Below, piece after piece: positions 1,004 to 61,540 of a DNA stretch of 64,000 bases (the first letter of the stretch is position 1; each line of letters starts with the position of its first letter). The position numbers and the translations under genes were made by a program. Below the pieces are notes generated by a model. The model did not search any database and was not told the origin of the DNA. It saw nothing but the letters and a program-made list of their open reading frames with translations. The DNA is from Parvibaculaceae bacterium. Its GTDB lineage: Bacteria; Pseudomonadota; Alphaproteobacteria; JAPOUT01. Where the stretch lies: positions 982,984-1,046,983 of the forward strand of contig OY734805.1 of the NCBI GenBank assembly GCA_963457525.1. The letters run 5' to 3'.

Positions 1004-1079
1004 GTTTGACCTATCGATATTGGTTGAAAGACTCCGCTTGGTTGTTTATTGCCGAATCTCGCGCTCGAAGCAAGGGTTT

Positions 1080-2601: not shown

Positions 2602-2611
2602 GGCTGCTTTC

Positions 2612-14300: not shown

Positions 14301-14962
14301 GCGTACGCGCCCGCCGACGGTTCACAAAAAATGACGGCGGGTTGTACCTTCTCACGCCGCCGCGTGTTTGCTTGCAAACGTTTCCCGACGCCTTGTCCCG
14401 GGCGTTGGAGGCGGGAGGCGTTTCGTGCCTGCAGATTCGCCTGAAATTCTCCCAAGATGAATCCCGGGATTCCGGGCGCGTTTGGCGTGAATGCGTCGGG
14501 GTTCTTGCGCCCCTGGCCCGGCGCTACGGCGTTTCGGTTTTGCTGAACGACGATGCGCGTCTTGCCGGCGCGTTGGGAGCGGACGGCGTTCATATCGGGC
14601 AGCAGGACGACGGCATGGATGCAGCGCGTGCATCGGTGGGCGAGGGCATTGTCGGCGTGACCTGCCATGACTCCCCGGAGCTGGCGCACGCGGCACAGGC
14701 TTCGGGGGCGGATTATGTTGCGTTTGGATCTTTTTTTGCGTCCCGCAACAAACCGGACGCGGTGCGCGCGCCTCTCGGGATTTTGTCGCACTGGCGCGAG
14801 AAGGGAAACATTCCCTGCGTTGCGATAGGGGGAATCACGGCGGGGAATGCGGCGGATTTGCTGCGTGCGGGCGCAGACTACCTAGCGGTGTGCGAGGGCG
14901 TATGGGGACACGCGGACGGGCCCGCGGCGGCGGTTGAAGAATTCGCGGTGCTGTTCGGTTAG
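14297..14962 (+). CDS. thiE: Thiamine-phosphate synthase ThiE
   Basis: The TMP-TENI fold (GADGVHIGQQD...VAIGGIT) is present. Its ATG overlaps the fba stop (ATGA). Confidence 0.85.
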   Translation: MSVRARRRFTKNDGGLYLLTPPRVCLQTFPDALSRALEAGGVSCLQIRLKFSQDESRDSGRVWRECVGVLAPLARRYGVSVLLNDDARLAGALGADGVHIGQQDDGMDAARASVGEGIVGVTCHDSPELAHAAQASGADYVAFGSFFASRNKPDAVRAPLGILSHWREKGNIPCVAIGGITAGNAADLLRAGADYLAVCEGVWGHADGPAAAVEEFAVLFG

Positions 14963-17940
14963 AAGTCGTATCGCAAACCGAAATTGACCCGGTAGGATTC
15001 GATCTCGTCGCCTTGCGAGGTTTCGAAGTCGCCGAAGAGAATCGCGCCGTTCCCTTTCGATAAAAAATCAACGGGATAGTTGAATCCCATACCGAGATCG
15101 ACGGCGACGTCTTCGATTTCATTGACGAAGGTTACGCCTGAAACATCGACGCTCGTCCTTCCGTCCAGGGGCACGCGCAGGTTGGCATCGGCGCGGAAGA
15201 ACGCGCCTGCCGCCGATGCGCCGATGCGCCCGACGAGCGTGTTTCCGTCTTTGAGCGAAACGCTCTGCCCCGCGGGCGCTTCGAACCCATTAAAGCCGAC
15301 GCGGCTCCATATGAGTTGCACCTGCGGCGTCAGGGTGACGGTTTCGAATTCGAAGTTGTATCCGATTTCTTGCGCCGCGCTGAATGCTAGAGCGCTGTTT
15401 CCGGATGCGAGGGTTCTGTTTTCGGCGCGGAGGTTGTTGTCGAAGGTTGCGAATCGGGTTTGCATGTCGGCGTAGAAGTCCTTGTACTTCCATAGCGCGT
15501 TGAGAGAGGCCGTAACAGTGTCGGTTTCGATTTTTCCCTTGCCGGTGGTCGCGGCAAGGTTCGTTTTCGCCGAGCCTATCGTGATGTCCGCATCGAGATT
15601 GAGTGTTTGCACAACGGGCATGTCCACGCCGAATCGCGCGCGTGAGTGCTCTATATCGAAGTCGGAGCCGAGCGTGGATCCGTTCGGCTCGAGACGGGTG
15701 TGCCTGGTTTCGACTTTCCCCCAGAAGGTTCTGCGGTTTGCATCCGCCCATTTACGCGCACTGAAGCGCCGGAGCATGGAGGAGGGCTGTGCAAGCTGTG
15801 TGAGGATAGCGGGATAGGCTTCGTGATTCTGAAGGCTTGGAGCGAATCCGCTTTCGTTCAGCGACCATGATTTTGCCGTCGCGTCATAGACGAGTTCGTA
15901 GGCGAAGGCTCCGTGGGAGAAGTTATCGACGCTGAAAGCATCGGCGCGGGAGGCTCCCCGGACGGAGATGATATTGTTGATATCGGTTCCGGGATCAATG
16001 CGGCCGTTTGCCCGGATTTCGAGGCTGCCGGTTTCATTGCCGGTGATGTCTCCGGTGATGATGAAGTGTCCGGGATTATCGAGTTGGAGGTCGATTGCCA
16101 GATCTCCGCCGGCCTGGAAGTTGCCGTCCAGTGTCGTGTCGCCGGCGACTTCGAGCACGCCGCCGTCGGGAACGGCGAGGCTTGCATCGCTTGCAAGCCG
16201 CAGGGTTGCACCGCGGAGTCGCAGCCGCCCGGAGGTGAAAGAGACGGCGTCGAATTCTTCACCGGCCTGCATTGCCCCGGTGAGTTCCCAGAGGCCGTTT
16301 CCGGTTTTCTCGAGGGTGCTGAATCCGTTGAGGGTCGAGAGATCGAATCCGCCTGCGTGCGCCGGGAGCGATGGAGTTCCGTTCCCGCTTTGTCCGTGCA
16401 GCATCGGGTGGTATTCGTTTGCCTGTGCGTTGACTGCATCGGCGAGTTCGAGGATTGCATCGCCGGATGCCGTGATAGCGTCCTCGATGCTGCTGCCGGG
16501 GCGCACAATGAGTCGTTGTGTTGTCCCGCCGCTCATGGAAATGCCGTCTCCGGAGTTGCTTTTGATTCGTCCGCCGACCTCAACGAGAATGTTTCCGGCT
16601 CCCCGGTGGTTGATGTCGATGCCTGCGTTTTCGGCATGGATGTATTCGTTTGCCGTGACGAAGATGTCTCCGGTGCTACTGTCTTTGTACGCATGGATTC
16701 CCCTGTCTCCTGCGTGAATTTGTTCGTTTGTCGTGATGGAGATGTTTCCGCCGTTGATTTGGCGCGTGTGTATGGCGCTTTCAATGTTTGTTTGGATGCG
16801 TCCGTTTGCCGTAATGAAGATGGATTCATTGCTCTCGTGCTGCACGTATATTCCGTCTTTTTCCGCGGTGACGTCGTTTGCGATGATATTGACGGTGCTC
16901 GAGCCTTGCTGTCTAACGTTGATTCCGTCTTCTTGTGCCGCGGTTATGCGTCCGTAGGCTTCGATGTTGACGGCTTCTGCGGTGGGGTCGTTTATGACTT
17001 TAATGGCATGGTCGCTGTTGGCGGCAAGAGTCGCGTTTTTTTGGATGGTAATGTTGACGTCTCTTCCATAACCGTGTGCGTAGATGACGTTTTTCTCGGC
17101 GGCGAGGTTTCCACCTTCCACCGTGACGTTGACGTCCTCCGAGTTACTGAGGGCATAAGCGTAGATTGCGCCGGCTCTTGCAGTGATGTTGTTATTTGTT
17201 GTGACATTGTTGCTCCCTGAAGCGGCGTGTCGTGCCATGATGGCGGGAGCGATCGTGCTTGCACTGTTCATGTCCCCGCTGACGTAAATGTGCGAATTCG
17301 TTCCGTATTGGTTGTAGGTGTAGACGAGGTTTCCGGTGCGGTCCCCCTCGCTTGACGTGTCTCCGGCCACGGTTAGCGTTAAAGTTCCCGTTCCTGCGTG
17401 TTCCAGCCGGACGGCGTGGCCGGCGGTGGTAATGATTCCATCGAAAAAGATTGCGGAGCGGCTTGTTCCGTTGATTGCGGCGGTCAAGTTTGCGGATTCC
17501 CGCCGGGTTTTAATCAGGATTCCATCGCGTCTGCCCGAGGCGTTTGTGTTGGTGGTGACGGTGACATCCCCGCTCCCCTGGTGGTCGAGGTGGATTCCGC
17601 GCAAGTTTCCCGTGATGGAGCCGCCGCCGTCCAGGTGGATGTTTGCGCCCGTGGAGTTCGTTGAGGTTGTAATAACCAGGCCGGAGCCTTGCTGTGTATG
17701 ATGGGAGAATTCCTCTTCGTCCGTGATGGAGAAAATTCCATCATGCGTGCCGGAGATCATTTGCGTCGTATCGGTTTGCATGTTCGCCGGGCCCGTGCAT
17801 GTGTAGGAACCGGCCGTTCCGGTGCATGTTCCCGCGAATGCGTCCGGGAGTGCCGCGCCGAGAAGGATGGGTGCGAAAGTTATGATTCCACGGGCTGTTT
17901 TGCGAAGGCGTCCGCCGCGCATGTTTTTGTTGGGGGTCAT
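14959..17940 (-). CDS. Large autotransporter (type Va) with β-helical passenger and C-terminal β-barrel
   Basis: The signal peptide is MRGGRLRKTARGIITFAPILLGAALPDAFA. Passenger repeats follow, and the C-terminus ...NFGLRYDF ends in Phe. The stop overlaps the thiE stop by 2 bp in convergent orientation. Confidence 0.75.
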   Translation of the reverse strand: MTPNKNMRGGRLRKTARGIITFAPILLGAALPDAFAGTCTGTAGSYTCTGPANMQTDTTQMISGTHDGIFSITDEEEFSHHTQQGSGLVITTSTNSTGANIHLDGGGSITGNLRGIHLDHQGSGDVTVTTNTNASGRRDGILIKTRRESANLTAAINGTSRSAIFFDGIITTAGHAVRLEHAGTGTLTLTVAGDTSSEGDRTGNLVYTYNQYGTNSHIYVSGDMNSASTIAPAIMARHAASGSNNVTTNNNITARAGAIYAYALSNSEDVNVTVEGGNLAAEKNVIYAHGYGRDVNITIQKNATLAANSDHAIKVINDPTAEAVNIEAYGRITAAQEDGINVRQQGSSTVNIIANDVTAEKDGIYVQHESNESIFITANGRIQTNIESAIHTRQINGGNISITTNEQIHAGDRGIHAYKDSSTGDIFVTANEYIHAENAGIDINHRGAGNILVEVGGRIKSNSGDGISMSGGTTQRLIVRPGSSIEDAITASGDAILELADAVNAQANEYHPMLHGQSGNGTPSLPAHAGGFDLSTLNGFSTLEKTGNGLWELTGAMQAGEEFDAVSFTSGRLRLRGATLRLASDASLAVPDGGVLEVAGDTTLDGNFQAGGDLAIDLQLDNPGHFIITGDITGNETGSLEIRANGRIDPGTDINNIISVRGASRADAFSVDNFSHGAFAYELVYDATAKSWSLNESGFAPSLQNHEAYPAILTQLAQPSSMLRRFSARKWADANRRTFWGKVETRHTRLEPNGSTLGSDFDIEHSRARFGVDMPVVQTLNLDADITIGSAKTNLAATTGKGKIETDTVTASLNALWKYKDFYADMQTRFATFDNNLRAENRTLASGNSALAFSAAQEIGYNFEFETVTLTPQVQLIWSRVGFNGFEAPAGQSVSLKDGNTLVGRIGASAAGAFFRADANLRVPLDGRTSVDVSGVTFVNEIEDVAVDLGMGFNYPVDFLSKGNGAILFGDFETSQGDEIESYRVNFGLRYDF

Positions 17941-18378
17941 GTTGTCTCCGTTTGAAATTGGTTCGATGGATGAACGAACGGACGACAATTGAGCGCTTAA
18001 TTTTGGATGTTATACGCACCCGGAAACTTAACGGGATGAAACTCCCCCTAGCAGGGCCGGGGAAAATAACCGCCGATTTTGCTTGTTTGTTTTTCTTAAA
18101 AGATTGGCAGGCGTCGCGAAACGCAACCATGCCGATCCGTAAAAAGCAAACAAGTAAAAAGACCGAGCAACCAACTCGAAAATTTTGACATGTTACTGAT
18201 TTGATTCGCGCGGGACGCGCACTTGGACGAATTCCGCTACGACTCGCCCTGCCCGATTCGCATTTTCCGAAGAAAGCGAAAATGCGTCCGCAAAGAGGCT
18301 TGGCCCGCAAATCCCGGCGGGGAAAGCCCGCTCCCCATATTCCCTAATTACAGGGAAAAGGGGACAACGTCAAGCCTT

Positions 18379-24273: not shown

Positions 24274-26508
24274 TTGTCGTCACTCATGAATGCTTCGAAA
24301 AAACCGCAGGTGAGGGTGCTCGTGCCGCTGGCCGTGCCCAAAGCCTACAGCTACGCCCTTCCCGAGGGCATGACCCTCGCCCCCGGCGACGTAGTGCGCG
24401 TGCCCCTGGCTTCGAAGGTGTGCACGGGGGTCGTCTGGGACGGTGCCGGGGACGGGGATATTGATGAAAAGCGGCTGCGGTACGTTCAGGAACACCTGCC
24501 GGTCCGACCCATCCCGAAGGAACTGCGGACGTTCATCGAATTCGTTTCGAAATACACGCTCCATCCTCTCGGCACCGTGTTGCGCCTCACATTGAGTGCG
24601 CCGAACGCGCTCAAGCCCCCTCCCGAGCGATTCGGATATGTCGCAACCGCAACAGCACCCAAGCCGATGACGCAAACGCGAAAACGGGTTCTTGACGTCC
24701 TCGAGCAGGAAAACGGCCCCATCGAACAAAGTGACTTGGTTAAGCGCGCAAAAGTCCGCGCCGAAGTGCCGCGCGCGATGGCGAAAGCCGGATGGCTGCG
24801 GCAGGTTCAAATGGACGGCGCGAGCGAAACCGCGCCGCACGATGCATACCAGCTCGCCCGGGAGAAAAGCGCTTTGCCTTCGTTGTCCCCCGATCAAGAA
24901 TCGCTCGTCTCCGTATTGCGCGAGGCGCTGAAAGACGGGGACGGCTGGGGGAAGGACGGCGCACGCGGCAACGGCTTCCTGCTGGACGGCGTCACGGGCT
25001 CGGGTAAAACCGAGGTTTATTTCGAAGCGATTGCTTCGATTTTGGAAGCAGGCAGGCAGGTGCTTGTGCTGCTGCCGGAAATCGCGCTCACCGAACAATT
25101 TCTCAAACGTTTCACCGCGCGCTTCGGCATCGAGCCTCTCGTATGGCACTCGGGGCTGACGCAGGCGCGACGGCGCGACGGCTGGAGGGCGGTTTCGAAC
25201 GGTTCGGCGCGCATGGTCGTCGGGGCGCGCTCGGCCCTGTTTCTTCCGTTCGAAACACTCGGGCTTATTGTTGTCGATGAAGAACACGAGCAGGCCTTCA
25301 AGCAAGACGACGGCGTTCTCTATCACGCGCGGGACATGGCCGTTGCGCGCGCTTGGCTCGGCGGCTTTCCGATTCTGCTCTCTTCGGCGACGCCGAGTTT
25401 GGAATCGCTGGAAAATGTCGAGCGCGGACGTCTGCAGCATTTGCGTCTGGGGGAGCGCTTCGGCGGCGCGTCGCAGCCGGATATTTCCATCATTGATTTG
25501 CGCGGCGAAACCACCGATTCGTCCCATTGGCTCGGCGAATCACTGGTTTCACTCATGCGCGAGACCCTCGAGCGGGGAGACCAGAGCCTTTTGTTTCTCA
25601 ATCGCCGGGGCTATGCGCCGGTTTCGCTGTGTCGCGCCTGCGGCGAGCGAATCACTTGTCCCAATTGCGATACATGGCTCGTTGAACATCGCTCCCGCGG
25701 CGGACTCTTGTGCCATCATTGCGGTTTTCGGCGCGCCTTGTTGCTCGAGTGTCCCGCCTGCGGAGAAAAGGAAAGTCTCGTGGCGTGCGGCCCCGGAGTC
25801 GAGCGCATTGCCGAAGAAACCGCCGCCTTGTTTCCGCAGGCGCGAATCGAGATTCTCTCTTCGGACAAAGTTTTCGGCGCGCGGGGTTACCAGGGCGCCA
25901 TCGAGCGAATCCTCGGACGCGAGGTCGATATCATCATCGGCACGCAAATCATTGCCAAAGGCCATCACTTTCCGCATCTCACGCTGGTCGGCATCGTTGA
26001 CGCCGACATCGGGCTTGGAAATGCGGACATGCGCGCAAGCGAGCGAAGCTATCAGCTGCTTCACCAGGTCATCGGACGTTGCGGGCGGGAGGAGCGCCCC
26101 GGACGGGCCTTGTTGCAAACCTGGATGCCCGAGCATCCCGTCATCCAGGCCCTTGCGCGCGGCGATCGCGACGGCTTCATAGAACAGGAGCGGTTTTTCC
26201 GCGAGCGCGCGGGTTTGCCGCCCTTCGGGCGGCTGGTTGCGGTGATTCTCTCCGATACCAGCGAGCAGAGAGTCAAGGACGCGGCGCAGGCTTTGAGCAA
26301 AGCCGTTCCCAGGGGGGAGGGTTTTGTGCTGCTGGGTCCCGCGCCGGCGGCCTTATACCGCCTGAGGGGGAAATTCCGGTATCGTTTCCTGTTGAGGGCG
26401 GGCCGAAACATCAACGCGCAGAGGCTGATTAGCGACTGGCTTGCCGGCGCCCGCCTGTCTTCCGGCACGCGTTTGGTTGTGGATGTCGACCCCTATTGGT
26501 TCGGTTGA
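24274..26508 (+). CDS. priA: Primosomal protein N' (PriA helicase)
   Basis: The helicase motif GVTGSGKTEVY and DEEH are present. The Cys-rich Zn motif CRACGERITCPNCDTWLVEH...CHHCG is also present. Confidence 0.9.
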   Translation: MSSLMNASKKPQVRVLVPLAVPKAYSYALPEGMTLAPGDVVRVPLASKVCTGVVWDGAGDGDIDEKRLRYVQEHLPVRPIPKELRTFIEFVSKYTLHPLGTVLRLTLSAPNALKPPPERFGYVATATAPKPMTQTRKRVLDVLEQENGPIEQSDLVKRAKVRAEVPRAMAKAGWLRQVQMDGASETAPHDAYQLAREKSALPSLSPDQESLVSVLREALKDGDGWGKDGARGNGFLLDGVTGSGKTEVYFEAIASILEAGRQVLVLLPEIALTEQFLKRFTARFGIEPLVWHSGLTQARRRDGWRAVSNGSARMVVGARSALFLPFETLGLIVVDEEHEQAFKQDDGVLYHARDMAVARAWLGGFPILLSSATPSLESLENVERGRLQHLRLGERFGGASQPDISIIDLRGETTDSSHWLGESLVSLMRETLERGDQSLLFLNRRGYAPVSLCRACGERITCPNCDTWLVEHRSRGGLLCHHCGFRRALLLECPACGEKESLVACGPGVERIAEETAALFPQARIEILSSDKVFGARGYQGAIERILGREVDIIIGTQIIAKGHHFPHLTLVGIVDADIGLGNADMRASERSYQLLHQVIGRCGREERPGRALLQTWMPEHPVIQALARGDRDGFIEQERFFRERAGLPPFGRLVAVILSDTSEQRVKDAAQALSKAVPRGEGFVLLGPAPAALYRLRGKFRYRFLLRAGRNINAQRLISDWLAGARLSSGTRLVVDVDPYWFG

Positions 26509-26850
26509 GGGAATTGCACGCTTCCTTTTGAAAAACGCCGATTTTTGAGGGAGGCGCCTTATGGAGACGGCAAAGCAAAACCCCGGGCGCTTGCTAGGCA
26601 GAGGCTATCCCGGGGTGCACGAGCCGAGTATAAATGTGGAAAGAAAAAAAGTCAATGGCAACCCAAAAGAACCCGACCCCCATTTCCAAGATTCCGTTCC
26701 GCAACGTCAGGCGCTTTTTCGCGCCCGGGGCTGTTTATTTCGCTTGCGGGAGCCGGAAAATCCCCCCGAATCTCCTCCTTGCCCCAAACGCCCCGCTGTG
26801 CTATCCCATACGCACAACCACCTATTCCAAACGAACCAGAGTGCAGGCCC

Positions 26851-27411
26851 TTGTCCACACCAAATATCGCAATTGCATCCGCGCCCGGACGATACGCAGC
26901 CGCCCTTTTCCAGCTCGCGAAAGACGGCAACGCCCTTGAGGCCGTTGCCGATGACATGGCCGCTCTTGAGAATCTTATCAAGGACAATCCGGACCTTCAT
27001 TTTGCCTTGACCAATCCGGATTTTCCAAAAACGCAAAAATACAAAACCCTCCAGACCATCTGCGACAAGCTTGATGCGCACAAACTTACACGAAACACCA
27101 TCGGCGTGCTCTCGCAAAACTCCCGCGTTGCCCTTATTGGCGAAGTTGCCGCCAGTTTTGCAAATCTTCTCGCCCACCATCGAAACCAGCAGCATGCCGA
27201 GGTCATCTCCGCCGCTCCCCTCAATCCGCAGCAGCAATCCCAAATTCGGGACTTGCTCGAGAAAAACATTGACGGCAAAATCAAACTTTCCCTCCTGACC
27301 GACCCGAAGATTCTCTCGGGAATCATCGTCAAGATCGGGAGTTTCATGATCGACACGTCGCTCAAAACAAAACTCGAAACCCTTGAAACCACAATGAAAG
27401 AAACAAACTAG
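26851..27411 (+). CDS. atpH: ATP synthase F1 delta subunit (OSCP)
   Basis: Translation from TTG 26851 gives [20 protein letters not shown]...; the 186-aa length is typical of delta. The longer ORF from 26545 is unlikely to be coding. Confidence 0.75.
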
Positions 27412-27412
27412 T

Positions 27413-28945
27413 ATGGACATCCAGACCGCCGAAATCTCCAAAATCCTCAAAGAGCAAATCCAGAACTTCGACCAGTCGCAGGCGCAAGTCGCCGAAATTG
27501 GACGGGTTCTCTCCGTTGGCGACGGCATCGCGCGGGTGCACGGACTTGATAACGTGCAGGCCGGTGAAATGCTCGAGTTCCCGAACAACGTCCGCGGAAT
27601 GGCGCTCAATCTCGAGCATGACAGCGTCGGAATCGTTCTCTTCGGACAAGACCAGAAGATCCAGGAAGGTGACACCGTCAAACGCACCGGCGAAATCGTC
27701 GAGGTTCCCGTGGGGCGCGGACTGCTCGGGCGGGTCGTGGACGCGCTTGGAAACCCCATTGACGGAAAGGGCCCCATCCAATCGGACGAGATGCGCCGTG
27801 TTGACGTCAAGGCGCCGGGAATCATCGCGCGGCAATCCGTTCACGAACCCATGCAGACGGGACTCAAAGCCGTGGACGCGCTCATTCCCATCGGAAGGGG
27901 GCAGCGCGAACTTATCATCGGCGACAGGCAGACCGGCAAGACCGCGGTTGCCATTGACGCCATCCTCAACCAGAAAGCGGTCAACGAAGGAAGCGATGAA
28001 TCCAAAAAACTCTACTGCATCTATGTAGCCATCGGACAGAAGCGCTCGTCCGTTGCAAACATCGTTCGCACCCTTGAAGAAAACGATGCCATGAAATACT
28101 CCATCGTCGTTGCCGCCACCGCGTCCGATCCGGCGCCGCTGCAGTTCCTCGCGCCCTTTACCGGATGCGTCATGGGGGAGTATTTCCGCGACAACGGTAT
28201 GCACGCACTCATCATTTACGATGATTTGTCCAAACAAGCCGTTGCGTACAGGCAGATGTCCCTGCTTCTGCGCCGTCCGCCCGGACGCGAAGCCTATCCC
28301 GGCGATGTTTTCTATCTGCATTCGCGCCTGCTTGAGCGCGCCGCCAAGCTCAACGAAGAGCACGGCTCCGGTTCCCTTACCGCCCTGCCCATCGTTGAAA
28401 CGCAGGCCAACGACGTCTCCGCTTACATTCCGACCAACGTGATTTCCATTACCGATGGACAGATATTCCTGGAAACCGATCTCTTCTATCAAGGCATCCG
28501 TCCCGCCCTGAACGTCGGGCTTTCGGTTTCGCGTGTGGGATCCTCCGCCCAGGTGAAGGCCATGAAGCAGGTCGCCGGACGCATTAAGGGCGAGCTCGCG
28601 CAATATCGGGAAATGGCCGCCTTCGCACAATTCGGCTCCGATTTGGACGCATCCACGCAAAAGCTTCTCGCCCGGGGATCGCGTCTGACCGAGCTTTTGA
28701 AACAGGCGCAGTTTTCCCCCCTCTCCATGGAGGAGCAGGTGGTCGTCATATTTGCGGGCGTCAACGGATACCTTGATGACCTGCCGCTCGAGAACGTCGG
28801 GCGCTTTGAAGAAGAGTTGTTGCGGTTTGTCCATGCCGAACACGGCGGTCTTATTGAAGACATTCGCAAGGAGCAGTCGCTCTCGGATGAAATCGAAAAC
28901 CGTCTGCGCGAGGCCGTAACCGCATTCGCCAAAACTTTCGCGTAA
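27413..28945 (+). CDS. atpA: ATP synthase F1 alpha subunit
   Basis: The P-loop [15 protein letters not shown] is present and the product is 510 aa. Confidence 0.97.
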
Positions 28946-28979: not shown

Positions 28980-29876
28980 ATGGCAAGCCTCAAGGAATTG
29001 CGTAACCGCATCTCCTCGATTCAATCGACCAGAAAAATCACGCGCGCCATGCGCATGGTTGCCGCTTCCAAGCTGCGCACCTCGCAAGAGGCCGCGCAAG
29101 CCGCCCGTCCTTACGCGCAGCGCATGCGGGACCTTCTCGCCAAGCTCAGCACCCACATTGACGGCGGCGGCGCGTTGGCCGAGATGCCCTTGTTCGCCGG
29201 AACGGGCAAGGAAGAGAAGCATCTTTTCATCATTGCGACCGCCGACAGGGGCCTTTGCGGCGGCTTCAACACCTCGATCGTGCGCCTTGCCCGCGAGCGC
29301 ATCCGGCAGGTCGAGAACACCGGCGGGAAAGTCCAGGTCATCTGCGTCGGGCGCAAGGGTTTTGACATCCTCAAGCGCGAGTTCGGAGACCGCATTATCG
29401 AAAACTGGTCGCTCGCCTCGACGCGGCATGTCGAATACAAGCAGGTGCAGCAGATTTCCGCGCGCGTTGAGGAGATGTTCGAAGCCGGAGAGGTTGATGT
29501 CTGCGAACTCTTCTATGCGCATTTCCATTCGGTTTTAAGCCAGAAGCCCACGGCGCACCGTCTCATCCCCATGCGCTTGTCGCCGGAATCGGACGGGGAG
29601 GGCGCGCCGGAGTCGTCGGAGGCATCCGTTGAGTTCGAACCTTGGGAGGAAGAGCTTTTGGAGGCGCTTTTGCCGAAGGCGCTGCGCTCGCAGGTCTTTC
29701 AGGCGCTCCTCGAAAACGCCGCGAGTGAACAAGGCGCGCGCATGAGTGCTATGGACAATGCCACGCGGAACGCCGGCGAAATCGTTGACCGCCTGACCAT
29801 TGTTTACAACCGCACACGGCAAGCGGCCATTACCAAAGAGTTGATCGAGATCATTTCGGGCAGCGAGGCGCTCTAA
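28980..29876 (+). CDS. atpG: ATP synthase F1 gamma subunit
   Basis: MASLKELRNRISSIQSTRKITRAMRMVAASKLR is present. Confidence 0.95.
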   Translation: MASLKELRNRISSIQSTRKITRAMRMVAASKLRTSQEAAQAARPYAQRMRDLLAKLSTHIDGGGALAEMPLFAGTGKEEKHLFIIATADRGLCGGFNTSIVRLARERIRQVENTGGKVQVICVGRKGFDILKREFGDRIIENWSLASTRHVEYKQVQQISARVEEMFEAGEVDVCELFYAHFHSVLSQKPTAHRLIPMRLSPESDGEGAPESSEASVEFEPWEEELLEALLPKALRSQVFQALLENAASEQGARMSAMDNATRNAGEIVDRLTIVYNRTRQAAITKELIEIISGSEAL

Positions 29877-29878
29877 CC

Positions 29879-30544
29879 TTGCGGCAAATGAAGACATCGG
29901 GCGTCGAGGACCCGGAGGCGCAGATGGCACTGGCTTCGTGGCTGTGCAGTTGCATGGGGCACGACCTCGTCAATCCGCTCGCGGCCCTGCGCAACGGGCT
30001 TGAACTCCTTGAAGAAGAAGACGATGCCGAGATGCGCGCCGAAGCGCTGCAGCTGGTGGGCGCTTCGGCGGAACGCGCCCTTTCAAAACTGAATTTTTTC
30101 CGCTTGGCGTTCGGCGCGGGCGCATCGCTTCGAGCAACGACATCGCGCGAAGATGTTCTCGAGGCGACGGAGTGGATGCATGAGGAATCTTTTGATCTTC
30201 ACATCGACTCCTGGCGCGAGGAGATTCCCCGGGACATGTTGAAACTTCTGTTGCAAATGCTTTTGCTTGTGCGCGGATGCATTCCGCGCGGCGGCAGGCT
30301 TTGCGTTGCCGCCCTTGAGTGGGAAAACGGCAAGGGGCTTGTGGTAAGCGCGGAAGGCGCCGGTGCGGCGGCTCCCGAGAACATGGCGGAGCGTTTGAAG
30401 GAACCGTCCGCCCTGCCGGAAGACCTTCGCGGGTCGTTGCCGGCGTTTACGGCCAGGCTGCTCGCATCGAAGGGGATGCGCCTTGACGTGGAGAGCGCCG
30501 CCGACAAGGTGGCGTTGCGCGCGTATAAGGAGTCGGCGGCATGA
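29879..30544 (+). CDS. ChpT-like histidine phosphotransferase (HPT with degenerate HK-like fold)
   Basis: LCSCMGHDLVNPLAALRNGLELLEE...FFRLAFGA matches the ChpT H-box region. It starts 2 bp after the atpG stop. Confidence 0.65.
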   Translation: MRQMKTSGVEDPEAQMALASWLCSCMGHDLVNPLAALRNGLELLEEEDDAEMRAEALQLVGASAERALSKLNFFRLAFGAGASLRATTSREDVLEATEWMHEESFDLHIDSWREEIPRDMLKLLLQMLLLVRGCIPRGGRLCVAALEWENGKGLVVSAEGAGAAAPENMAERLKEPSALPEDLRGSLPAFTARLLASKGMRLDVESAADKVALRAYKESAA

Positions 30545-31239
30545 AAAGATTCCTGTCGGTTGCGTTGCTGTCGGTTGCGTTGTTGGGTTTTTCGGGTGCG
30601 ACGAAACTCTTTGCCGACATGCAGGTCTGGGAGGGCTGGGGAAGTTTCGGGATCTTCGGAGAACCGAAACCGGAGGTTTCCATGTCCGCGTGCGATGCCA
30701 TGGACATCACCGCCGTTAACGCCATTGGATTTATTTACCATCAAGTCTCCGAGCGCGCCCGCAATGCCACGCACATCGGATGGCGGTGGCGCGTTGACGA
30801 GGGCCCCGAGCCGACTTTTCTCGGCAAACGGCGGCAGGACCGTCCGATTTCCATCCATCTTCTCTTCGAGCCGCCCGAACTTGAGGGCGCTTACAGCGAA
30901 TGGCAATTGTGGCTTTCGGGCTTTCCCGAAGAAGCCCATGTACTCACTTATGTGTGGGGGAGTGCGAATGCGCCCGGATCGGTCCTGCTGAATCCGTACC
31001 ACGAACGCGGCAGACTCATCGTCCTGCGAAACGGCCTCGGCAATTACGGCGAGTGGCAGAACGAGCGCATCGATATTCGCGATGATTTCGAAACCCTGTT
31101 CGGCAAACCACTTCAGGAACTCGCATACATCGTTGTCTCGTCCGACACCGATGACAGCGATTCGGTCGCCAAGGTCTTGTTGCGCGAATTCTTTTTTGAA
31201 GACGAGACGGGCGAGCGTTTTTCTCCCTGCGAGGGCTAG
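30541..31239 (+). CDS. Secreted hypothetical protein (signal peptide; possibly DUF3047-like)
   Basis: The signal peptide is MKRFLSVALLSVALLGFSGA. It overlaps the upstream HPT gene by 4 bp. Confidence 0.45.
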   Translation: MKRFLSVALLSVALLGFSGATKLFADMQVWEGWGSFGIFGEPKPEVSMSACDAMDITAVNAIGFIYHQVSERARNATHIGWRWRVDEGPEPTFLGKRRQDRPISIHLLFEPPELEGAYSEWQLWLSGFPEEAHVLTYVWGSANAPGSVLLNPYHERGRLIVLRNGLGNYGEWQNERIDIRDDFETLFGKPLQELAYIVVSSDTDDSDSVAKVLLREFFFEDETGERFSPCEG

Positions 31240-32342
31240 AAGCCGCCGCCTTTATAGAGCCATCCCAACCGGGCATCGCGGAGTTGCTGCGGGGCAAGGC
31301 GTGCGAGGAATGCCGCCGACCGGCTCCAGGCCAGACGTCCCCAAAATCCCCGGCGATGAAAGACACGCCCCTGAAACAAAATCGCGCGGCGAACTTTTTT
31401 CAAGCGTTGGATCCGGTCCGGCGCGTCCAGCCCGCGCAGCCCTTCGCCTTTTTCCAAACTTTGCGCCAGGGCAAAGGCATCCTCAATGGCCATGCCCGCG
31501 CCTTGTGCAAGAAAGGGAAGCATCGGATGTGCGGCATCCCCCAGCAATCCGACCCGCCCGCGCGAGAATCGCTCCAAGATTTCGCTTTCAAACAATGTGT
31601 ATTTTTTCCAGGAAAGTTCCGGCAATCCTTTCAACCAGGTTTCAACGGGCGGGCGCTCATCTTCTTGCGCGAGCGCAACGAGATTGATGCGTTCTTTTCC
31701 GCGCATCGTATCGGGGAGCCGATAGGCAACCAGATGGCATCCCTTCGAACACCAGGCGCGGACATTGTTGTCCGGGACGACGGCGCCGTCGTCTGTCTGC
31801 GCGCGCCATGCGACATGCCCGCCGGGCAGGGGCGTCGTCTGTCGGGGAAACAGTTGTTTTCGAATGATTGAACCGACGCCGTCGGCGCCAAGGAGATAAT
31901 CGCCTTCGACGGTGCTGCCGTCGGTGCAATGGACGACAACGCCTTCATTTTGTTCTTCAAAGCCGGCGGCTTGTTTATGAAGCGGGGGATGTTTTAATTG
32001 CTGCCGCAGAATGTCGAGCAGATCGCCCCGGTGCAGGACAAGATAGGGCGCGCCGTAGAGTTTCTCGAGTGATTCTCCCAGGGGGATTCGATATGCCAAA
32101 GCGCCGGAGGCGGCATCGAGAATCTCGATTGCTTCGGGCTCAAAGGCGGCCGCACGCAAACGCGGTTCAACGCCGAGCGCTCGAAGGTGCCGGGTCGCAT
32201 TGGGAGCAAGCTGGATTCCGGCGCCCGCATCCTCGTCCGCATCGCGTTGCTCGAGCAAGACGCTCTCGATGCCTTTTGTCTGCAACGCCAGCGCCGCACA
32301 TAAGCCCGCAACACCGCCGCCACAGATGACAATCCTGCCCAC
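31236..32342 (-). CDS. FAD-dependent aromatic-ring monooxygenase (UbiH/salicylate-hydroxylase-like)
   Basis: The motifs are GRIVICGGGVAGLCAALAL, DG..S..R and GDAAH. Confidence 0.8.
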   Translation of the reverse strand: MGRIVICGGGVAGLCAALALQTKGIESVLLEQRDADEDAGAGIQLAPNATRHLRALGVEPRLRAAAFEPEAIEILDAASGALAYRIPLGESLEKLYGAPYLVLHRGDLLDILRQQLKHPPLHKQAAGFEEQNEGVVVHCTDGSTVEGDYLLGADGVGSIIRKQLFPRQTTPLPGGHVAWRAQTDDGAVVPDNNVRAWCSKGCHLVAYRLPDTMRGKERINLVALAQEDERPPVETWLKGLPELSWKKYTLFESEILERFSRGRVGLLGDAAHPMLPFLAQGAGMAIEDAFALAQSLEKGEGLRGLDAPDRIQRLKKVRRAILFQGRVFHRRGFWGRLAWSRSAAFLARLAPQQLRDARLGWLYKGGGF

Positions 32343-33203: not shown

Positions 33204-33430
33204 GCGCTTACCTCGTTCACCCCCTCTGTCGTTTTATACGTCTATCATAGACCAGAATGGCTTCGAAGGGAAATTGTTTTCGAGGAGGGAAAAATATCCG
33301 CGCTGTGAAAACCTCTTATGCTCCGAAATTTGATATGTAAGGCGAGGCATTCGGGCCTCTGTTCACAAAATGTAGAATCTGCCATTTTTGGATTCGCCAT
33401 CTTAGGTTGCGAAAGAGTGTTTGGTGTTTG

Positions 33431-33742
33431 TTATTGTTTTTCTTTTTCATCTCTTCCAAAAGCAACAGTAATACGCTGAAACACTCTCATTACAGGAGAA
33501 AAGAAAACAACGAAAAAAAGTATCTGAAGAATCCCTATTACCAAAGGGGCGCCCAAATTTGTTGCATCCGGTAAATATACAATGTCAATGCCAATGACAA
33601 TTGGGAGTAAAAATACAAGAGCTACATTGTAAAATTCTTCTTCCCATCTCTCATTATCGTTAGATTTTTCACTAATAGCCTTGTCTTCTTTACCCGGTTT
33701 TTCTGAATCGAGGTCGCTCAATATTCCATCGGTGTTAGCCAT
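33431..33742 (-). CDS. Small 2-TM membrane protein (candidate toxin partner of the Panacea protein)
   Basis: The 103-aa product has an acidic N-terminus and two hydrophobic helices, VALVFLLPIVIGIDIVYL and LVIGILQILFFVVFFSPVM. It overlaps the Panacea gene by 8 bp and lies in AT-rich DNA. Confidence 0.5.
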   Translation of the reverse strand: MANTDGILSDLDSEKPGKEDKAISEKSNDNERWEEEFYNVALVFLLPIVIGIDIVYLPDATNLGAPLVIGILQILFFVVFFSPVMRVFQRITVAFGRDEKEKQ

Positions 33743-34190
33743 TGTGTTTCCGCCTTTTCATTCGATTTTCATATTCTTTCTTAATCAGGTCACGAGGTAT
33801 TGCAATTCCGCGTTTCCTTTTTTCGTACACCTCGTGCCAAGCACCTTTTTCCCAGTGAGTGAATGACACGAGTGCCGCATCTGTTATTCCTTCGGCCGCA
33901 TCAATGGTTTCTTTCAAAATTTCAAATTCGTCTCCCTTGGTTACGCCACCATTTTTAGGAAATATATGACCGATAGAACTGGCGCCGTAAACTTTGCAGT
34001 AATGATATAACTCCGGTTCTACAGGTCCATGCTGCCACGCTTCAAAATTTTCCCTTATGAGATCTTTATCCGTCCTGCCCAGATAATACATGTGCGCGAT
34101 ATACAAGAGTTTTTGCAGCCTCAGGTTGGTTATTTTCCAGCCCGACAAATTGCAAAGTGTCTTGCCTGCGTCGATAGATGAAATTGTCAT
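33735..34190 (-). CDS. Panacea-domain (DUF4065, SocA-like) protein
   Basis: LRLQKLLYIAHMYYLGRTDKDLIRENFEAWQHGPVEPELYHY closely matches the Panacea/SocA core. The later motif ...FTHWEKGAWHEVY is also present. Confidence 0.75.
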   Translation of the reverse strand: MTISSIDAGKTLCNLSGWKITNLRLQKLLYIAHMYYLGRTDKDLIRENFEAWQHGPVEPELYHYCKVYGASSIGHIFPKNGGVTKGDEFEILKETIDAAEGITDAALVSFTHWEKGAWHEVYEKRKRGIAIPRDLIKKEYENRMKRRKHNG

Positions 34191-34234
34191 GTCGTTTCCT
34201 TTTTACAGATTCTACAGTGATTCGATGCAGGATG

Positions 34235-35164
34235 TCATTGTATCAGGCGGGTGAATCCATTCGCCGAATGGAGAGCGCATCGTGTGTTCCTTTTGTAGTG
34301 GTGACCATCCAAAAGGCTGCCGTATCGGCGAATATTCTCGCTTAGTTCTTCTTTCTCTCCATAGTCGTTGATTGCGAGGTGAATATCTCCATCGCGCAAC
34401 TCCCGCATCGGGATGCTATACCCGTGAGAATGCCATCTCGATATGCTTCCCAAGATTTCGGCGATGCTTTCGGCTCTTTCTTGTTTCATTTCCAGGGTTA
34501 CATCTTTCTTTTTGGTTTCCGTCTTTGCCCAATTTTTAAATTTATATTCGACCAGCCACTTTTTTATCAGTTCTTTTGAGCGTTCCATTGCTTGTTTAAC
34601 AGCAAACATATCTGCGGGGTCAAAGTTTTTAATCAAGAATAAAAGCTCCGCATCGCTCAAATCCCTTTCCTTGCTTTCCTTGATTAATTCGTCGTACTGA
34701 CGAAGATATCCTGCTCCGCGGATCCATTGTCCCTCGTCGTTTCTAAAGTACGGGTCTATCGGCCCCAATACGGAGTGATAATCCATGTATATGTTGTCGC
34801 CTGAAAGAACCAGCACCGTGCCGGCGGAATAAGCGTGGTTTGGAACGATGAAATCGACAATTTCAAAGTTATGCCGAAATACACGGCAGATGCGCTCTGC
34901 AACTTCTACGAATCCTCCGGGTGTTGCAATCATCACGACGAGGCGTTTGCTTAGCTCCCCCTTTTGTTTTTTCAAGAATTCAATATCGCGGCGAATCATG
35001 TCATCCAACCCTTGGTCAATGTGTCCGCAGATGGATATGACCTCTCCTTCGAGAATGTTTTCTATTTTTTCCCGAAATTGCGACAACGAAAATTCAATGA
35101 ATTGATGGACTTTTATGGTGTTTTGCATGGTTTTCTCCTTCCTGGAACGCGAGCGTATGGGCAT
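34235..35164 (-). CDS. SDH-family serine protease (PF01972 serine-dehydrogenase proteinase; ClpP/S49 fold)
   Basis: VVMIATPGGFVEVAERICRVFRHNFEIVDFIVPNHAYSAGTVLVLSGDNIYMDYHSVLGPIDP carries the nucleophile in the A-Y-S-A-G context. An alternative start is ATG 35128. Confidence 0.7.
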   Translation of the reverse strand: MPIRSRSRKEKTMQNTIKVHQFIEFSLSQFREKIENILEGEVISICGHIDQGLDDMIRRDIEFLKKQKGELSKRLVVMIATPGGFVEVAERICRVFRHNFEIVDFIVPNHAYSAGTVLVLSGDNIYMDYHSVLGPIDPYFRNDEGQWIRGAGYLRQYDELIKESKERDLSDAELLFLIKNFDPADMFAVKQAMERSKELIKKWLVEYKFKNWAKTETKKKDVTLEMKQERAESIAEILGSISRWHSHGYSIPMRELRDGDIHLAINDYGEKEELSENIRRYGSLLDGHHYKRNTRCALHSANGFTRLIQ

Positions 35165-35484
35165 CCCTACCCGAGATTAAGCAAGTATATTTATTTGCAG
35201 GGAGCGCCTCCGCCGACTCAAAAAGACACAACGTCTTTGCGCGGCGGTTCTTGGCAATTTATTCGCAGTGTGAAGTTCTAATCTTCTTCTGATTCTCCGA
35301 ATTTGAAGGAAACCCTACCTCGAAAAGATTCAAAAGTCAAGATCTTTTTTTTTGGTTGATGGCGCTTGGCAGAATTTCTACGGCTTGTTGATGCGAATTG
35401 GCTTGATTGGCGCCGTTTCCATTTTTTGCAGATATTCGGGGAAGATGATATAATGCATGTAATTGAAATAAAATCCATGGTAGA

Positions 35485-36489
35485 GTGATTCCTATGAATA
35501 CAATACGAATGGTTGTAGCGACCCTGCCGATGGCGTTTCTAACCGCATGCGGCGGCGGAGGCGGCGGAGGGGGTGCGGCATCGGCTCCTGCTCCTGCTCC
35601 TACTCCTACAATAGACGATGATAGCGTTCCCCCAGACTGGAGCTTGCTGACCGAGTTTGCAGAGCACGCGGATTCTCCAGTCCTGGAAGCCGTTAGAGGG
35701 ATCACAAGAGCGATGGGCGCGGATTTATTTTTAAGTCCGTTTGCGGAAGCGGGAAATTTAAACGAGACAAACCATACGAAGAATCTTGGAGTTTACTTTA
35801 CTACGTTGCCAGGTGGCGGTAATAGTCTGGTATTTAACATAGGTGTTTACGATGATATTTCCCTGGTGGAAGCCAATAATTTTTGGGCTACTAGAGATTA
35901 TACCTCCGTGACTACAACCGGTGTAGTCGTTGGTGATGTTACTCTTGCACGAAACAGATTAACCGGAACAAGATACCAAGGCATGTCTCGCATGGCAATC
36001 CAAACCTTTTCAGGGTGGTTGGACGGCAGTGTTTTTGGAACTTCGCGAATAGCGTTTGCGTATAGAACACCTGCTGAAGACTACAGGTTTGTTTCTCATA
36101 CTTCCGGTGTGCCCAGCAATTCTAGGCCAAGCGCAACGGGAACGGAAACTTCGGCAACATGGGAAGGTGTCACTGTCGCCTCAATAAAAGCCGATAGGGA
36201 ATTCATTCGAGGTGATGCAACTATTACTATCTCGGACCTTACAAATGCAGATGTCAATTTGAGGTTTGATAATTGGCATGATTTGGATAACGAAGAGTTA
36301 TCAACTATGCCGGCAATCACTTATGACAATTTGACGCTTACCAACGGGAGTTTTGGAGGATCCTCTCCCGACCAGGTCTTCGGACACTTTTATGGAACAG
36401 ACCATAACGAGGTCGGTGGATACTTCAACACTATGGATGTTACGGGAGCTTTTGGCGGGACGAGGCAACCGGCGGAATCATCCGAATAA
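35485..36489 (+). CDS. Surface lipoprotein with TbpB-C-lobe-like (PF01298-type) β-barrel domain
   Basis: The lipobox is AFLTAC, followed by a Gly/Pro-Ala linker. The C-terminal motif GHFYGTDHNEVGGYFNTMDVTGAFGGTRQ resembles the G.FYG...E.GG.F....GAFG.KRQ signature of TbpB, fHbp and HpuA. GC content is ~47%. Confidence 0.55.
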   Translation: MIPMNTIRMVVATLPMAFLTACGGGGGGGGAASAPAPAPTPTIDDDSVPPDWSLLTEFAEHADSPVLEAVRGITRAMGADLFLSPFAEAGNLNETNHTKNLGVYFTTLPGGGNSLVFNIGVYDDISLVEANNFWATRDYTSVTTTGVVVGDVTLARNRLTGTRYQGMSRMAIQTFSGWLDGSVFGTSRIAFAYRTPAEDYRFVSHTSGVPSNSRPSATGTETSATWEGVTVASIKADREFIRGDATITISDLTNADVNLRFDNWHDLDNEELSTMPAITYDNLTLTNGSFGGSSPDQVFGHFYGTDHNEVGGYFNTMDVTGAFGGTRQPAESSE

Positions 36490-36524
36490 AACCGTTAAAA
36501 ATTTTTTCGATGTGCGGTTTTGCC

Positions 36525-47152: not shown

Positions 47153-50100
47153 GTGAGAAAGATGAAACAAGGTGGTGTTTTGCGAAATCGGATGTGTCTG
47201 CGGGCACCAAAGCTGCCGCTCGCCCTTTCGCTTGCGGCAATTTTGCTGGCCGGCTGCGGCGGGAGCGGAGGGGATCGCTTCGTCGGCCCGGGCAGTCCGC
47301 CGCCGCGCGAGCCGACTACCGAGGATCGCGAGGGACGTGCGGAGGAGATTTTGAAGGGGCTGGAGTTTCTCAACCAGACGGACATGCGGCTCGTGTTTGT
47401 GGAAGAGATGGAGGACGAAGACGGGGACGGAAACGGTGACGGGACCGGGAATGGCAACGGAAACGGCAACGGCAACGGCAACGGGGACGAAAACGAGGAA
47501 GAAGTCATGCGGAAGGTGTCGCCTTCCGAGTTGCAACGCATCAACGCGCATCATGCTTACGGATACACCCACAGGGGAGCCGAGTTGCTGGACGAAACCG
47601 GAGACATCAGCGGTTTCGGTGTTTACGTTGGCGTAGGCGGATTGGGACTGGAGCACAACCACGAGAAAATCCTGGGACGCTTATTCCAATCGGCTGTGCC
47701 CTATCCCGAGGATGCTTTTGACGTGTTGCGCATAGACACGGACGCTATGGCGAACCAGGAGTTCAGCGCCCAGGAACTGCTGGCGAGTCTCGATAAGTTT
47801 GGCGACATTGATGCCGTTGAAGAAAGTTTCGAAGCGCGCAAAAAGGCTTTGGTGCGCTCGCTTACCTCCCAATACTACAGTGATGACGAGGCCGCCAATA
47901 GTTATCCGGATCAGGATCGGGTTCATGCGGATTACATCATTCATATCGATGACATCAAGGACCTGACCGATGACGGTTTCGATGACCAGAAGCGATTCAC
48001 ATACCTGCGCAACATTTTGAACTGGGCGGAAGAAAATGATTTCACCGGTCCGGACGACTTCGATCCCGAAGACCCTACCGCGGATCCCCCTATCGCGGGC
48101 GACGGCACAACGGACAAGGACCTGACAGACAACTTCCGTTATATCCAAGCGGTGTGCGCGGACAAGGGAAACTACTCAAGCGGGGCGGTTACGGATTGCC
48201 CCTCCGACAGGCCGCATTTTATCGACTTCGGCGACCGTACGCCGGGGGGTCGTGATTTGCGTTTGATTCCCGATTTTTCGCAACGGCTTCTCGGTTCGCA
48301 GGCCCCCGGACTGATAGCGAACGAGCGCAACATTCACCTTGCCAATCTCTCCTCCCTCCCCGTTGAAGAAGAGAACGAAGACCTTACGGACGACCTTACG
48401 GAACTTCTGGCATTGAGGGCAATAGACGACCTTACGACCCCCGAGGAAAAGATTGAGCGCGCGCGCGAACTGCTCCCCGACCGCATCACGGAAGCAACGC
48501 CGCAGGAGCCGGAAGATATTGACGGCATTCAGAGCATTATCAACGTGCGCATCCGAGAGTTGCTGAAAATACTCGAGGTAGCGCTGGATATTCCGGAAGA
48601 CCCGGAAGCCGATCCATCCAACACGGAGAGCGAGTTAAGCCCGAAGGCTCGCATTGACAGGCGCATTGAGATTTTGTTCGCGAACCTGCGGTTCACGCCT
48701 GCGGAAGGGCCGGTGCACGGCGTCGCCTTTGGAAGCAGGATCGTTCCCCACGTCGCCAACGCCGTGCTCAGAATCGAGTGCGCCGGCGACAATGAAGAAA
48801 CCACCCCTTGCCTGGTGGCGGGCGATATTCGCAAGCCGGACGACCCGCGCACCGATCCGGACATTGACCTCGACAAATTATTCGCCGACTACATCAATGC
48901 CATTCCCGGTCCCACCGATGAGGCGGTGGATGCCGGCACGAGCGGTGACGGTGTCGAGCGGGGGGTGGATATCTTTCTGCTGGACGCGGTGGTCGAAGGC
49001 AACGGCATTGTGGGAGGCGATAGTAGAAAGACTTTCCTCAATACCCATCTTGATGAAACGCTGGCGGCGATTGAAGAATTCCTTGAACGGCGCAACAATC
49101 CGGTCATGGTCGTGCGCTCGGGTTACGGCGGTTTCGAGGGAAAACCCGATCCCGCATCGCCCGATCCCGATAACGTCATACGGGGGCCCCGAACCCTCGC
49201 CGCGCTGCCCTATCGTTACGAGACCTGCACGCAGGAAAATGTTGATGTGGACTGCCGAAACTTCCGCGGGCGAATGCTTACGGCAGCGGCCCTCAACATG
49301 CACAACAACGAGCTTCACGAAAACTCGCCGCGTTGTGGAAATCTGCCGAACGATTGGATCTCCAGAATCCACGGACGTCACTACTGCCTAACCGCTCCCG
49401 GCGACCGTCTCCGCATCAACGGCATGCTTGCATCGGACGACAACGGTGACGAAACCGTCGATCTAACCGCGGGATTCCGCAACGGCAGCAACGAGAAGCA
49501 GCCGGACGGCAGCGACGAGGATCCGGACGAATACCAGGTCGATCTGGGAGCGGCCTCCTTTGTCGCCGGATCCCTGGCGGTGCTGTCCGAGCGGTTTCGC
49601 GGACAACTCTCCGGACGCGAACTTGCATTGCGTCTCGTCAACACAGCCGACCAGGACATCTTCTACGACGACGACACACTGCTTACCGATACACCCCGTC
49701 CCACCGAGGAAGAAATGAATGATCCCGACATCATGGCGGCAGTGGAACAGGAACGCCGCACGGCGATTGAAGAGACTTATGGCGCGGGCTTGATTGATTT
49801 GGAAGCAGCGAGTGAAGTCATCGGCGAAGAGGTTGTGCGCATCCCCTCGTCCTCGGCAAGCAGGAACAAGCCGGCTTCGGCGGTGTCAACATACACGGCC
49901 ACCAAGGTGACAGCGAGCCCGGCATTCGGCGACAGCCTCGCCCTGGCGCTGTACGGCCGCGAAATCGTCACCTTCGATGAATGGGACGCGCCCTTCTGGC
50001 GTCCGTTGTCGTGGCTGGTTTCAACATCAACGAACCGGCGCTCCCTGCTCGAGCGTCGCGAGGGCGCTTCCGCTTCCGGTGCGCGCTTCGTGCCGCTGGA

Positions 50101-61386: not shown

Positions 61387-61540
61387 AATTGAATCTGTCC
61401 GCCAAAACGCGGCGATTTGCGAGGGTTTTTCCAGCTTGAAATTTAAATCTTGCAATTAATCATAGCAGTTTTTGCGATGATTAATCTTGATTTTGCGGGG
61501 AATAGCCCCCATAATCGTCTTAAATTTTGCGGTGATTGAC

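Follow-up and report, generated by a model that had tools for sequence, protein, structure and literature searches.

The F1 gene cluster and the genes that follow atpG

We analyzed a stretch of 64,000 nucleotides (the window) from contig OY734805.1 of a Parvibaculaceae bacterium in the alphaproteobacterial lineage JAPOUT01 (assembly GCA_963457525.1, positions 982,984 to 1,046,983 of the forward strand), in which a cluster of genes for the F1 part of the ATP synthase ends at atpG and is followed by genes for a ChpT-family histidine phosphotransferase (HPT) and a protein of the DUF3047 family. The three F1 genes are contiguous and co-oriented on the + strand: atpH, encoding the delta/OSCP subunit (~26845-27411, exact start uncertain; PF00213 OSCP, 159.7 bits, covering residues 15-184 of 188 amino acids (aa)), atpA, encoding the alpha subunit (27413-28945; PF00006, PF00306 and PF02874), and atpG, encoding the gamma subunit (28980-29876; PF00231 at full length, 326.5 bits). 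They are separated by 1 nt (atpH-atpA) and 34 nt (atpA-atpG), and the atpH gene calls in relatives are 183-186 aa long. The HPT gene (29879-30544, +) encodes 221 aa with a predicted phospho-histidine at residue 28 (H28), and the DUF3047 gene (30541-31239, +) encodes 232 aa. The cluster is bounded on the left by priA, the gene for primosomal helicase N' (24274-26508, +; Pfam PriA_3primeBD, DEAD and PriA_C), and on the right by a convergent gene for an FAD-dependent monooxygenase (31236-32342, −; PF01494, 94.8 bits), the 3' end of which overlaps the DUF3047 stop codon by 4 bp. The next gene is cysE.

An earlier note, made from the sequence alone, had described atpH, atpA and atpG as a contiguous cluster ending at atpG in a window without genes for the beta and epsilon subunits, and the open reading frame (ORF) listing, Pfam and phmmer bear this out. 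A phmmer search with AtpA through every six-frame ORF 80 aa or longer recovered atpA itself as the sole alpha/beta-family ORF of the window and no paralogue that could be atpD. Pfam scans of nearly all remaining ORFs in the window likewise detected no beta or epsilon subunit, and neither atpD nor atpC follows atpG in related loci up to 10 kb on either side. Both genes must be located in another part of the genome. Neither an Rfam nor a tRNA scan gave any match in the window.

The arrangement atpHAGDC, which the note took to be that of most Alphaproteobacteria, is indeed the usual one: 89.1% of surveyed Alphaproteobacteria keep the epsilon, beta, gamma, alpha and delta genes together, and Cyanobacteria and Bacteroidetes as a rule have beta-epsilon separated from gamma-alpha-delta and the genes beyond (PMC5709465). 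The layout of those two phyla has the same gamma/beta cut point as the cluster in the window, so a cut at this point has bacterial precedents but is found in only a minority of Alphaproteobacteria. The window shares the standard atpH-atpA-atpG order and tight spacing of alphaproteobacterial atpHAGDC operons (e.g. that of Rhodobacter capsulatus), but in its lineage DUF3047, with or without HPT, stands in place of atpD-atpC, apparently in the same transcription unit. Tybulewicz, Falk and Walker are said to have reported in 1984 an unidentified extra frame ('gene X') between atpG and atpD in the atp operon of Rhodobacter (Rhodopseudomonas) blasticus; if so, a non-atp frame directly follows atpG there as in the window, but atpD-atpC still come after it. 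Our literature search found no report of chpT or DUF3047 beside atp genes.

Conservation and history of the atpG junction

The gene order of the window recurs in related loci (designated by L numbers). A protein identical to HPT is encoded on eight ENA contigs (four of them shown as L001-L004) in the order priA-atpH-atpA-atpG-HPT-DUF3047, followed by the FAD-monooxygenase gene and cysE on the opposite strand. The same order is found in L005 (JAPOUV01) and L011 (JAPOUT01), two NCBI metagenome-assembled genomes labelled 'Hyphomicrobiales bacterium' with HPTs 81-82% identical to that of the window, in L097 and L098 (81%) and in the TARA contig L006, with an HPT only 55% identical. The atpG-HPT-DUF3047 junction is thus present in at least nine independent assemblies, produced by various assemblers and projects, over a range of HPT identity from 55 to 100%. 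Synonymous divergence (dS) from L006 is saturated at ~1.7-2.1, and the gene order is still kept. Ratios of nonsynonymous to synonymous divergence were 0.15 and 0.21 for HPT, 0.13 and 0.12 for DUF3047 and 0.03-0.07 for atpA/atpG, and these low values indicate that HPT and DUF3047 are real genes under purifying selection. Public data contain few members of the lineage: one GTDB species representative and, apart from that, ENA/TARA and Logan contigs. It is essentially absent from JGI metagenomes, a scan of which gave one distant DUF3047 match.

The window comes from a metagenome assembly, atpD and atpC were not located, and the junction might in principle have arisen from a chimeric contig joining atpHAG to unrelated DNA, the true genome having atpG-atpD. 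The recurrence of the same order in many independent assemblies at such varied HPT identities leads us to reject misassembly, and GC content at third codon positions is uniform through the junction (0.77, 0.72 and 0.68), where no frame is disrupted and the genes evolve under purifying selection. The earlier note had allowed that a corrected assembly could place atpD immediately downstream of atpG; the independent assemblies all have the order seen in the window. We regard an assembly or binning artefact as effectively refuted. The locus is a real and fairly ordinary operon rearrangement.

AtpG homologues form a distinct lineage at 99-73% identity, after which identity falls to ~61% for ordinary Hyphomicrobiales-like AtpG. 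Among the members that are 73-79% identical we found loci without HPT. L091 and L092 have the order atpH-atpA-atpG-DUF3047, with gaps after atpG of 3 nt and 4 nt, respectively (the latter for the start as we read it). L093 and L096 have atpG-DUF3047 with gaps of 28 nt and 31 nt; the upstream DNA of L093 is cut within atpA, and the L096 contig begins inside atpG. These four loci, with AtpG at 73-78% identity, also lack atpD. The AtpG C-terminus (...EIISGSEAL) is identical in relatives with and without HPT. The outer flanks of the HPT-less loci vary, with ChaC or priA upstream and an alcohol dehydrogenase, a large helicase or a TylF methyltransferase downstream. As in the window, priA precedes atpH in L005, L092 and L097; L091 lacks it at this place. 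The FAD-monooxygenase gene is positioned as in the window in L005 and L006 and also in L096, which has no HPT. The downstream flank of L096 is that of the window (FAD monooxygenase, cysE and moeA), and L096 is thus an empty site for the HPT insertion. The spacer between priA and atpH is ~340 nt in the window and 1.3-2 kb in relatives (L097 5248-5616; L005 5700-6970), and the L097 spacer includes segments that tblastn matched, at 50-57% identity, to PriA's C-terminal portion and that resemble duplicated 3' fragments of priA.

We constructed a neighbor-joining tree of AtpG with 200 bootstrap replicates. The lineage was monophyletic in 100% of replicates, the HPT-containing loci formed a clade in 74.5%, and this clade grouped with the HPT-less L093 group in 89%; the HPT-less loci were monophyletic in only 0.5%. 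These values favor one gain of HPT over several losses, and a single gain appears the parsimonious history. Because atpG is joined to DUF3047 in relatives without HPT, the break after atpG and the atpG-DUF3047 junction are older than HPT. Both are ancestral to the lineage and have outlasted several rearrangements of the flanks, and HPT is a later, precise insertion into the ~3-31-nt spacer between atpG and DUF3047 in one sub-clade that includes the window. The earlier note had described the operon as continuing into HPT and the secreted protein instead of atpD-atpC. This order is correct, but HPT neither took the place of these genes nor brought about the break, as relatives without HPT already have atpG-DUF3047. 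Judged by these comparisons, the more stable partner of atpG is DUF3047 rather than HPT.

The phosphotransferase, the DUF3047 protein and other features of the window

The HPT is of the kind that the earlier note had proposed, a ChpT-type phosphotransferase, and the protein encoded after it is, as in the note, a putative signal-peptide protein. The HPT matches PF10090 over residues 106-209 with 54.2 bits against a cut-off of 22.9, a match on which the note had made its identification depend, and scores just under the cut-off for HisKA over residues 26-69 (25.6 versus 26.9 bits). Among sequences in the PDB, phmmer aligned residues 16-213 to residues 44-240 of Brucella ChpT (4QPJ, E = 2.1e-25) and also matched ChpT of Caulobacter (4FMT, E = 9.5e-15; 4FPP, E ~1e-14). 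An AlphaFold2 (AF2) model with a predicted local distance difference test (pLDDT) score of 83.6 has helices at residues 12-46 and 50-78 that form a hairpin, followed by an alpha/beta domain. The seven best Foldseek matches of this model are all ChpT structures (including 4QPJ, 4QPK and 4FMT) with TM scores of 0.70-0.76, compared with ~0.5 for true kinases. H28, D29 and P33 of the HDxxxP H-box are invariant across 14 homologues including canonical ChpTs, with which the RLAFG and PRGG motifs are also conserved. No HATPase_c match was found at E up to 0.01, and the alignment shows no N, G1 or G2 box; the catalytic and ATP-binding (CA)-like domain is predicted not to be an ATP-binding kinase domain. 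In these respects the HPT resembles ChpT of the CckA-ChpT-CtrA/CpdR phosphorelay (Brucella abortus, 4QPJ/4QPK; Caulobacter crescentus CC_3470, 4FMT/4FPP), which is likewise a stand-alone protein of ~210-220 aa with a hairpin like that of dimerization and histidine phosphotransfer domains, bearing HDxxxP, and a CA-like alpha/beta domain without HATPase_c.

In Brucella, CtrA binds the eipA promoter, and the arrangement eipA-chpT-ctrA, often with fliI/fliJ or che genes, is typical of chpT although not strictly defining. Among the loci that we compared, L007 has EipA and ChpT followed by che genes, an OmpR-type response regulator (probably CtrA) and FliJ, and L010 has EipA, ChpT and RuvC. In L063 and L012 an inositol-monophosphatase gene adjoins the ChpT gene, and L063 also has an OmpR-type response regulator (probably CtrA) with FliI/FliJ. 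The eipA-chpT-ctrA arrangement itself has been described in Brucella (bioRxiv 10.1101/442541). Unlike canonical ChpT, the HPT is encoded 2 bp past atpG and not beside eipA or ctrA, and neither of these genes nor fliI was detected anywhere in the 64 kb by phmmer and by Pfam scans of nearly all ORFs. Among the best 80 of 578 matches in a genome scan with HPT, no locus other than that of the clade's own genome (JAPOUT01) has atpG or DUF3047 near ChpT. A candidate link between chpT and atpD, suggested by atpA-like tblastn matches lying 1-8 kb from canonical chpT, was rejected, as the match in L063 (the one locus of eight that was checked) is FliI beside FliJ. The window also contains a tolQ / 4HBT thioesterase / ruvB / ruvA / ruvC / yebC cluster (302-4501); in the distant relative L010, canonical chpT and eipA lie directly upstream of ruvC, a position taken by yebC in the window.

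If the cell has its true chpT near eipA or ctrA, the atpG-linked HPT could be a diverged extra copy that serves another hybrid kinase with its response regulator or acts as a pseudo-kinase-like adaptor. The location of the gene, its absence from this position in sister lineages and the scores against the nearest NCBIfam models all fit such a paralogue. The HPT falls below the cut-offs of both ChpT equivalogs (NF046018, 136.8 versus 240 bits; NF046025, 111.4 versus 225 bits), and members of the atpG-linked clade score 134-142 bits on NF046018, compared with 235-300 bits for ChpTs in the usual neighborhood beside eipA, the inositol-monophosphatase gene or ctrA. Its CA-like domain is only 23-24% identical to those of canonical ChpTs. 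Nevertheless, ChpT-family proteins of Jannaschia and Magnetospirillum reach only 88 and 99 bits, less than the HPT does against these models, which indicates that the equivalog cut-offs are specific to Brucella/Rhizobiales and Caulobacter and that a score below them is normal outside these groups. In addition, the hairpin (residues 16-80) is 62-63% identical to those of eipA-adjacent ChpTs and 66% identical to that of the clade member L006, a level above the 41-60% found among the hairpins of canonical ChpTs from different groups. The phosphotransfer hairpin carries partner specificity in two-component proteins. By the contrast between hairpin and CA-like domain, the HPT belongs to the ChpT family and has kept the hairpin for partner recognition while its back domain has diverged. 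No second ChpT from JAPOUT01 appeared among the best 80 of the 578 matches, which is weak evidence against a paralogue. Taking these points together, we consider an extra paralogue rather unlikely, if far from implausible, and the HPT, by analogy, most likely works as ChpT does.

The DUF3047 protein matches PF11249 over residues 53-212 with 98.2 bits against a cut-off of 27. Its N-terminus is hydrophobic (MKRFLSVALLSVALLGFSGATKLFA) and, judged by eye, resembles a signal peptide, with MKR, a hydrophobic core and then KLFA-D; a comparable hydrophobic N-terminus is present in all 33 aligned homologues, and the structural model has a lone N-terminal helix at residues 2-23 with lower pLDDT. The protein looks secreted or periplasmic and is predicted to be a beta-jelly-roll (beta-sandwich). 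The closest known folds are the concanavalin-A-like lectin/glucanase jelly-rolls (glycoside hydrolase families GH12, GH11 and GH16 and carbohydrate-binding modules). It shares 4-13% sequence identity with any solved structure, and no PDB sequence matched; catalytic residues do not appear assignable. The atpG-linked DUF3047 proteins constitute a separate orthologue set with at least 50% identity, the next matches being at ~35%, and the orthologues in this set come from atpG-linked contigs wherever they were checked or matched. They have two lineage-specific invariant cysteines, Cys51 and Cys230. A distant DUF3047 gene (L094) lies amid unrelated genes away from atp. We found nothing in the literature on DUF3047 function beyond one metagenome correlation study.

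Several other features of the window deserve mention. Between cysE and moeA lies a low-GC island (33204-36524; GC 0.445-0.46 versus ~0.60 in the flanks), which contains a gene with a SocA/Panacea antitoxin domain (33735-34190, −) overlapping a 103-aa hydrophobic ORF (33431-33742, −), a ClpP-like serine protease of the SDH-type/NfeD kind (34235-35164, −) and a 334-aa protein with a poly-Gly, lipoprotein-like N-terminus (35485-36489, +). In L096 the gap between cysE and moeA is only 63 nt, which makes the island of the window an insertion; L005 has a shorter version of it. A 1304-aa ORF without a Pfam or NCBIfam match (47153-51067, +) is directly followed by a 1008-aa subtilase (Peptidase_S8; 51094-54120, +), and the two may be a large secreted pair. 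A 1009-aa ORF (14959-17988, −) carries an autotransporter beta-barrel at its C-terminus (TIGR01414, 99 bits), and its passenger region has no Pfam match. The GAPDH ORF has an N-terminal extension of ~170 aa before Gp_dh_N (10495-11005), and its true start is probably downstream; the extension coincides with a kilobase of low GC (0.48) and high GC skew (0.21) between the transketolase gene and gap, with a spacer of ~500 bp. A 560-aa AAA_16/AAA_22 ATPase ORF (6706-8388, −; GC 0.48-0.54) between zapA and the transketolase gene may be acquired DNA. Finally, a Fic/DOC-family protein with an N-terminal DUF4172 (61487-62683) is encoded after a TctABC transporter cluster and a pair of CoA-ligase genes with succinyl-CoA-synthetase-type domains (ATP-grasp_2/Ligase_CoA and CoA_binding/Ligase_CoA).

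Expression of the locus and what its arrangement means

The first in-frame start of HPT is a TTG at 29879, and the statement of the earlier note that the next gene begins 2 bp after the atpG stop (TAA) is correct for this start, which is itself not certain. Two further candidates are an ATG at 29888, 11 nt past the atpG stop, and an ATG at 29924. In L005 both ATG positions read ACG, leaving only the TTG 2 bp past the atpG stop, and in L011, L097 and L098 the gene calls start 2 nt past this stop with TTG as the sole start. L006 has an ATG 11 nt past the atpG stop that aligns with residue 4, and the first helix of the AF2 model begins at residue 12, ahead of M16. For these reasons we favor the upstream start, with an atpG-HPT gap of 2-11 nt in most relatives and of at most 47 nt in the window. 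The 4-bp overlap of HPT with the DUF3047 gene, also described in the note, is an ATGA in the sequence, and L006 has a 21-nt gap in its place. A GAGG lies within atpG 11 nt upstream of the TTG, suggesting that coupling of HPT translation to that of atpG is possible. A promoter and terminator scan found no terminator-like site on the + strand from the end of atpG to the end of DUF3047, and, given this and the tight spacing, HPT and DUF3047 are likely co-transcribed with atpHAG.

The account that we prefer, and hold to be probable though by no means assured, has two stages: the F1 operon was split in an ancestor, with DUF3047 as its stable passenger, and a chpT-family gene, the product of which probably still functions as ChpT, was later inserted a single time. 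The ancestor shared by this uncultured marine alphaproteobacterial lineage already had atpHAGDC broken after atpG, and the gene for the predicted secreted DUF3047 protein lay 3-31 nt downstream of atpG. A chpT-family gene then entered exactly this spacer, once, in one sub-clade, and the junctions stayed tight. HPT and DUF3047 would be transcribed as the tail of the atpHAG mRNA, and translation of HPT may depend in part on ribosomes that finish atpG. HPT would then be a constitutive product of a housekeeping operon with strong expression. As a dimeric helical hairpin, the HPT would be phosphorylated at H28 by the receiver of the hybrid kinase CckA and would pass the phosphoryl group to CtrA or CpdR. 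The tie to the ATP synthase would then be one of gene placement and expression only and not of biochemistry.

Several points weigh against this account in addition to the low equivalog scores and the diverged CA-like domain discussed above. The ATG at 29924 is preceded by GGAGG-N5 and is a good alternative start, which makes the start of HPT in the window ambiguous. A simple promoter scan found no + strand promoter anywhere, not even upstream of atpH, which indicates that the scan is blind and leaves room for an internal promoter within atpG. Co-transcription and translational coupling are predictions from sequence, and the single-gain scenario is based on moderate bootstrap values for one protein by neighbor-joining only.

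The earlier note had also inferred that a signaling protein is co-regulated with ATP synthase expression. The tight junctions support one part of this proposal, in that co-transcription is likely, but we see no sign that the phosphorelay and the ATP synthase are functionally linked. If the placement did reflect function, HPT and perhaps DUF3047 would connect the phosphorelay with the expression, energy state, assembly or regulation of the ATP synthase. It is consistent with such a connection that the tight junctions (2-11 nt and the 4-nt overlap) are conserved across dS > 1.6 and that atpG and DUF3047 stay joined while their outer surroundings differ in at least five ways, the latter suggesting selection for DUF3047 to stay in the operon. 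Yet HPT is missing at the junction in the four sister loci, which implies that the ATP synthase does not need it, and F1 is cytoplasmic, unlike DUF3047, which looks secreted or periplasmic. More distant homologues of both DUF3047 and ChpT lie away from atp genes, the window has no CtrA box (zero matches to TTAA-N7-TTAA), and our literature search found no link of ChpT or DUF3047 to the ATP synthase. We therefore consider a functional basis for the placement very unlikely. An adaptive version of it, in which DUF3047 (and, in the sub-clade, also HPT) is made at a fixed ratio to the stalk and alpha subunits of F1, strikes us as scarcely probable, and it is just as doubtful that this couples phosphate flow through the CtrA pathway, or some role of DUF3047 in the envelope, to investment in ATP synthase. 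Were it true, it would represent a previously undescribed link from energy metabolism to the alphaproteobacterial cell-cycle phosphorelay. Unless a functional link is shown, the current understanding of ATP synthases and phosphorelays is unchanged.

Under the account of an ancestral split with later insertion, the locus is a clean natural example of an essential, stoichiometry-sensitive F1 operon that has been split although members of the class normally keep it whole, with an unrelated gene for a predicted secreted protein as a stable passenger. It would also document the precise insertion of a normally eipA/ctrA-linked gene for a cell-cycle phosphotransferase into a ~30-nt spacer, with the empty site surviving for comparison, and it places the uncharacterised DUF3047 family in an operon setting that is conserved. 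If HPT is the only ChpT of the cell, expression of this protein would have moved from the usual chpT locus to a housekeeping promoter, and such a move, if true, would bear on how the CtrA network has been rewired in symbiotic or marine Alphaproteobacteria.

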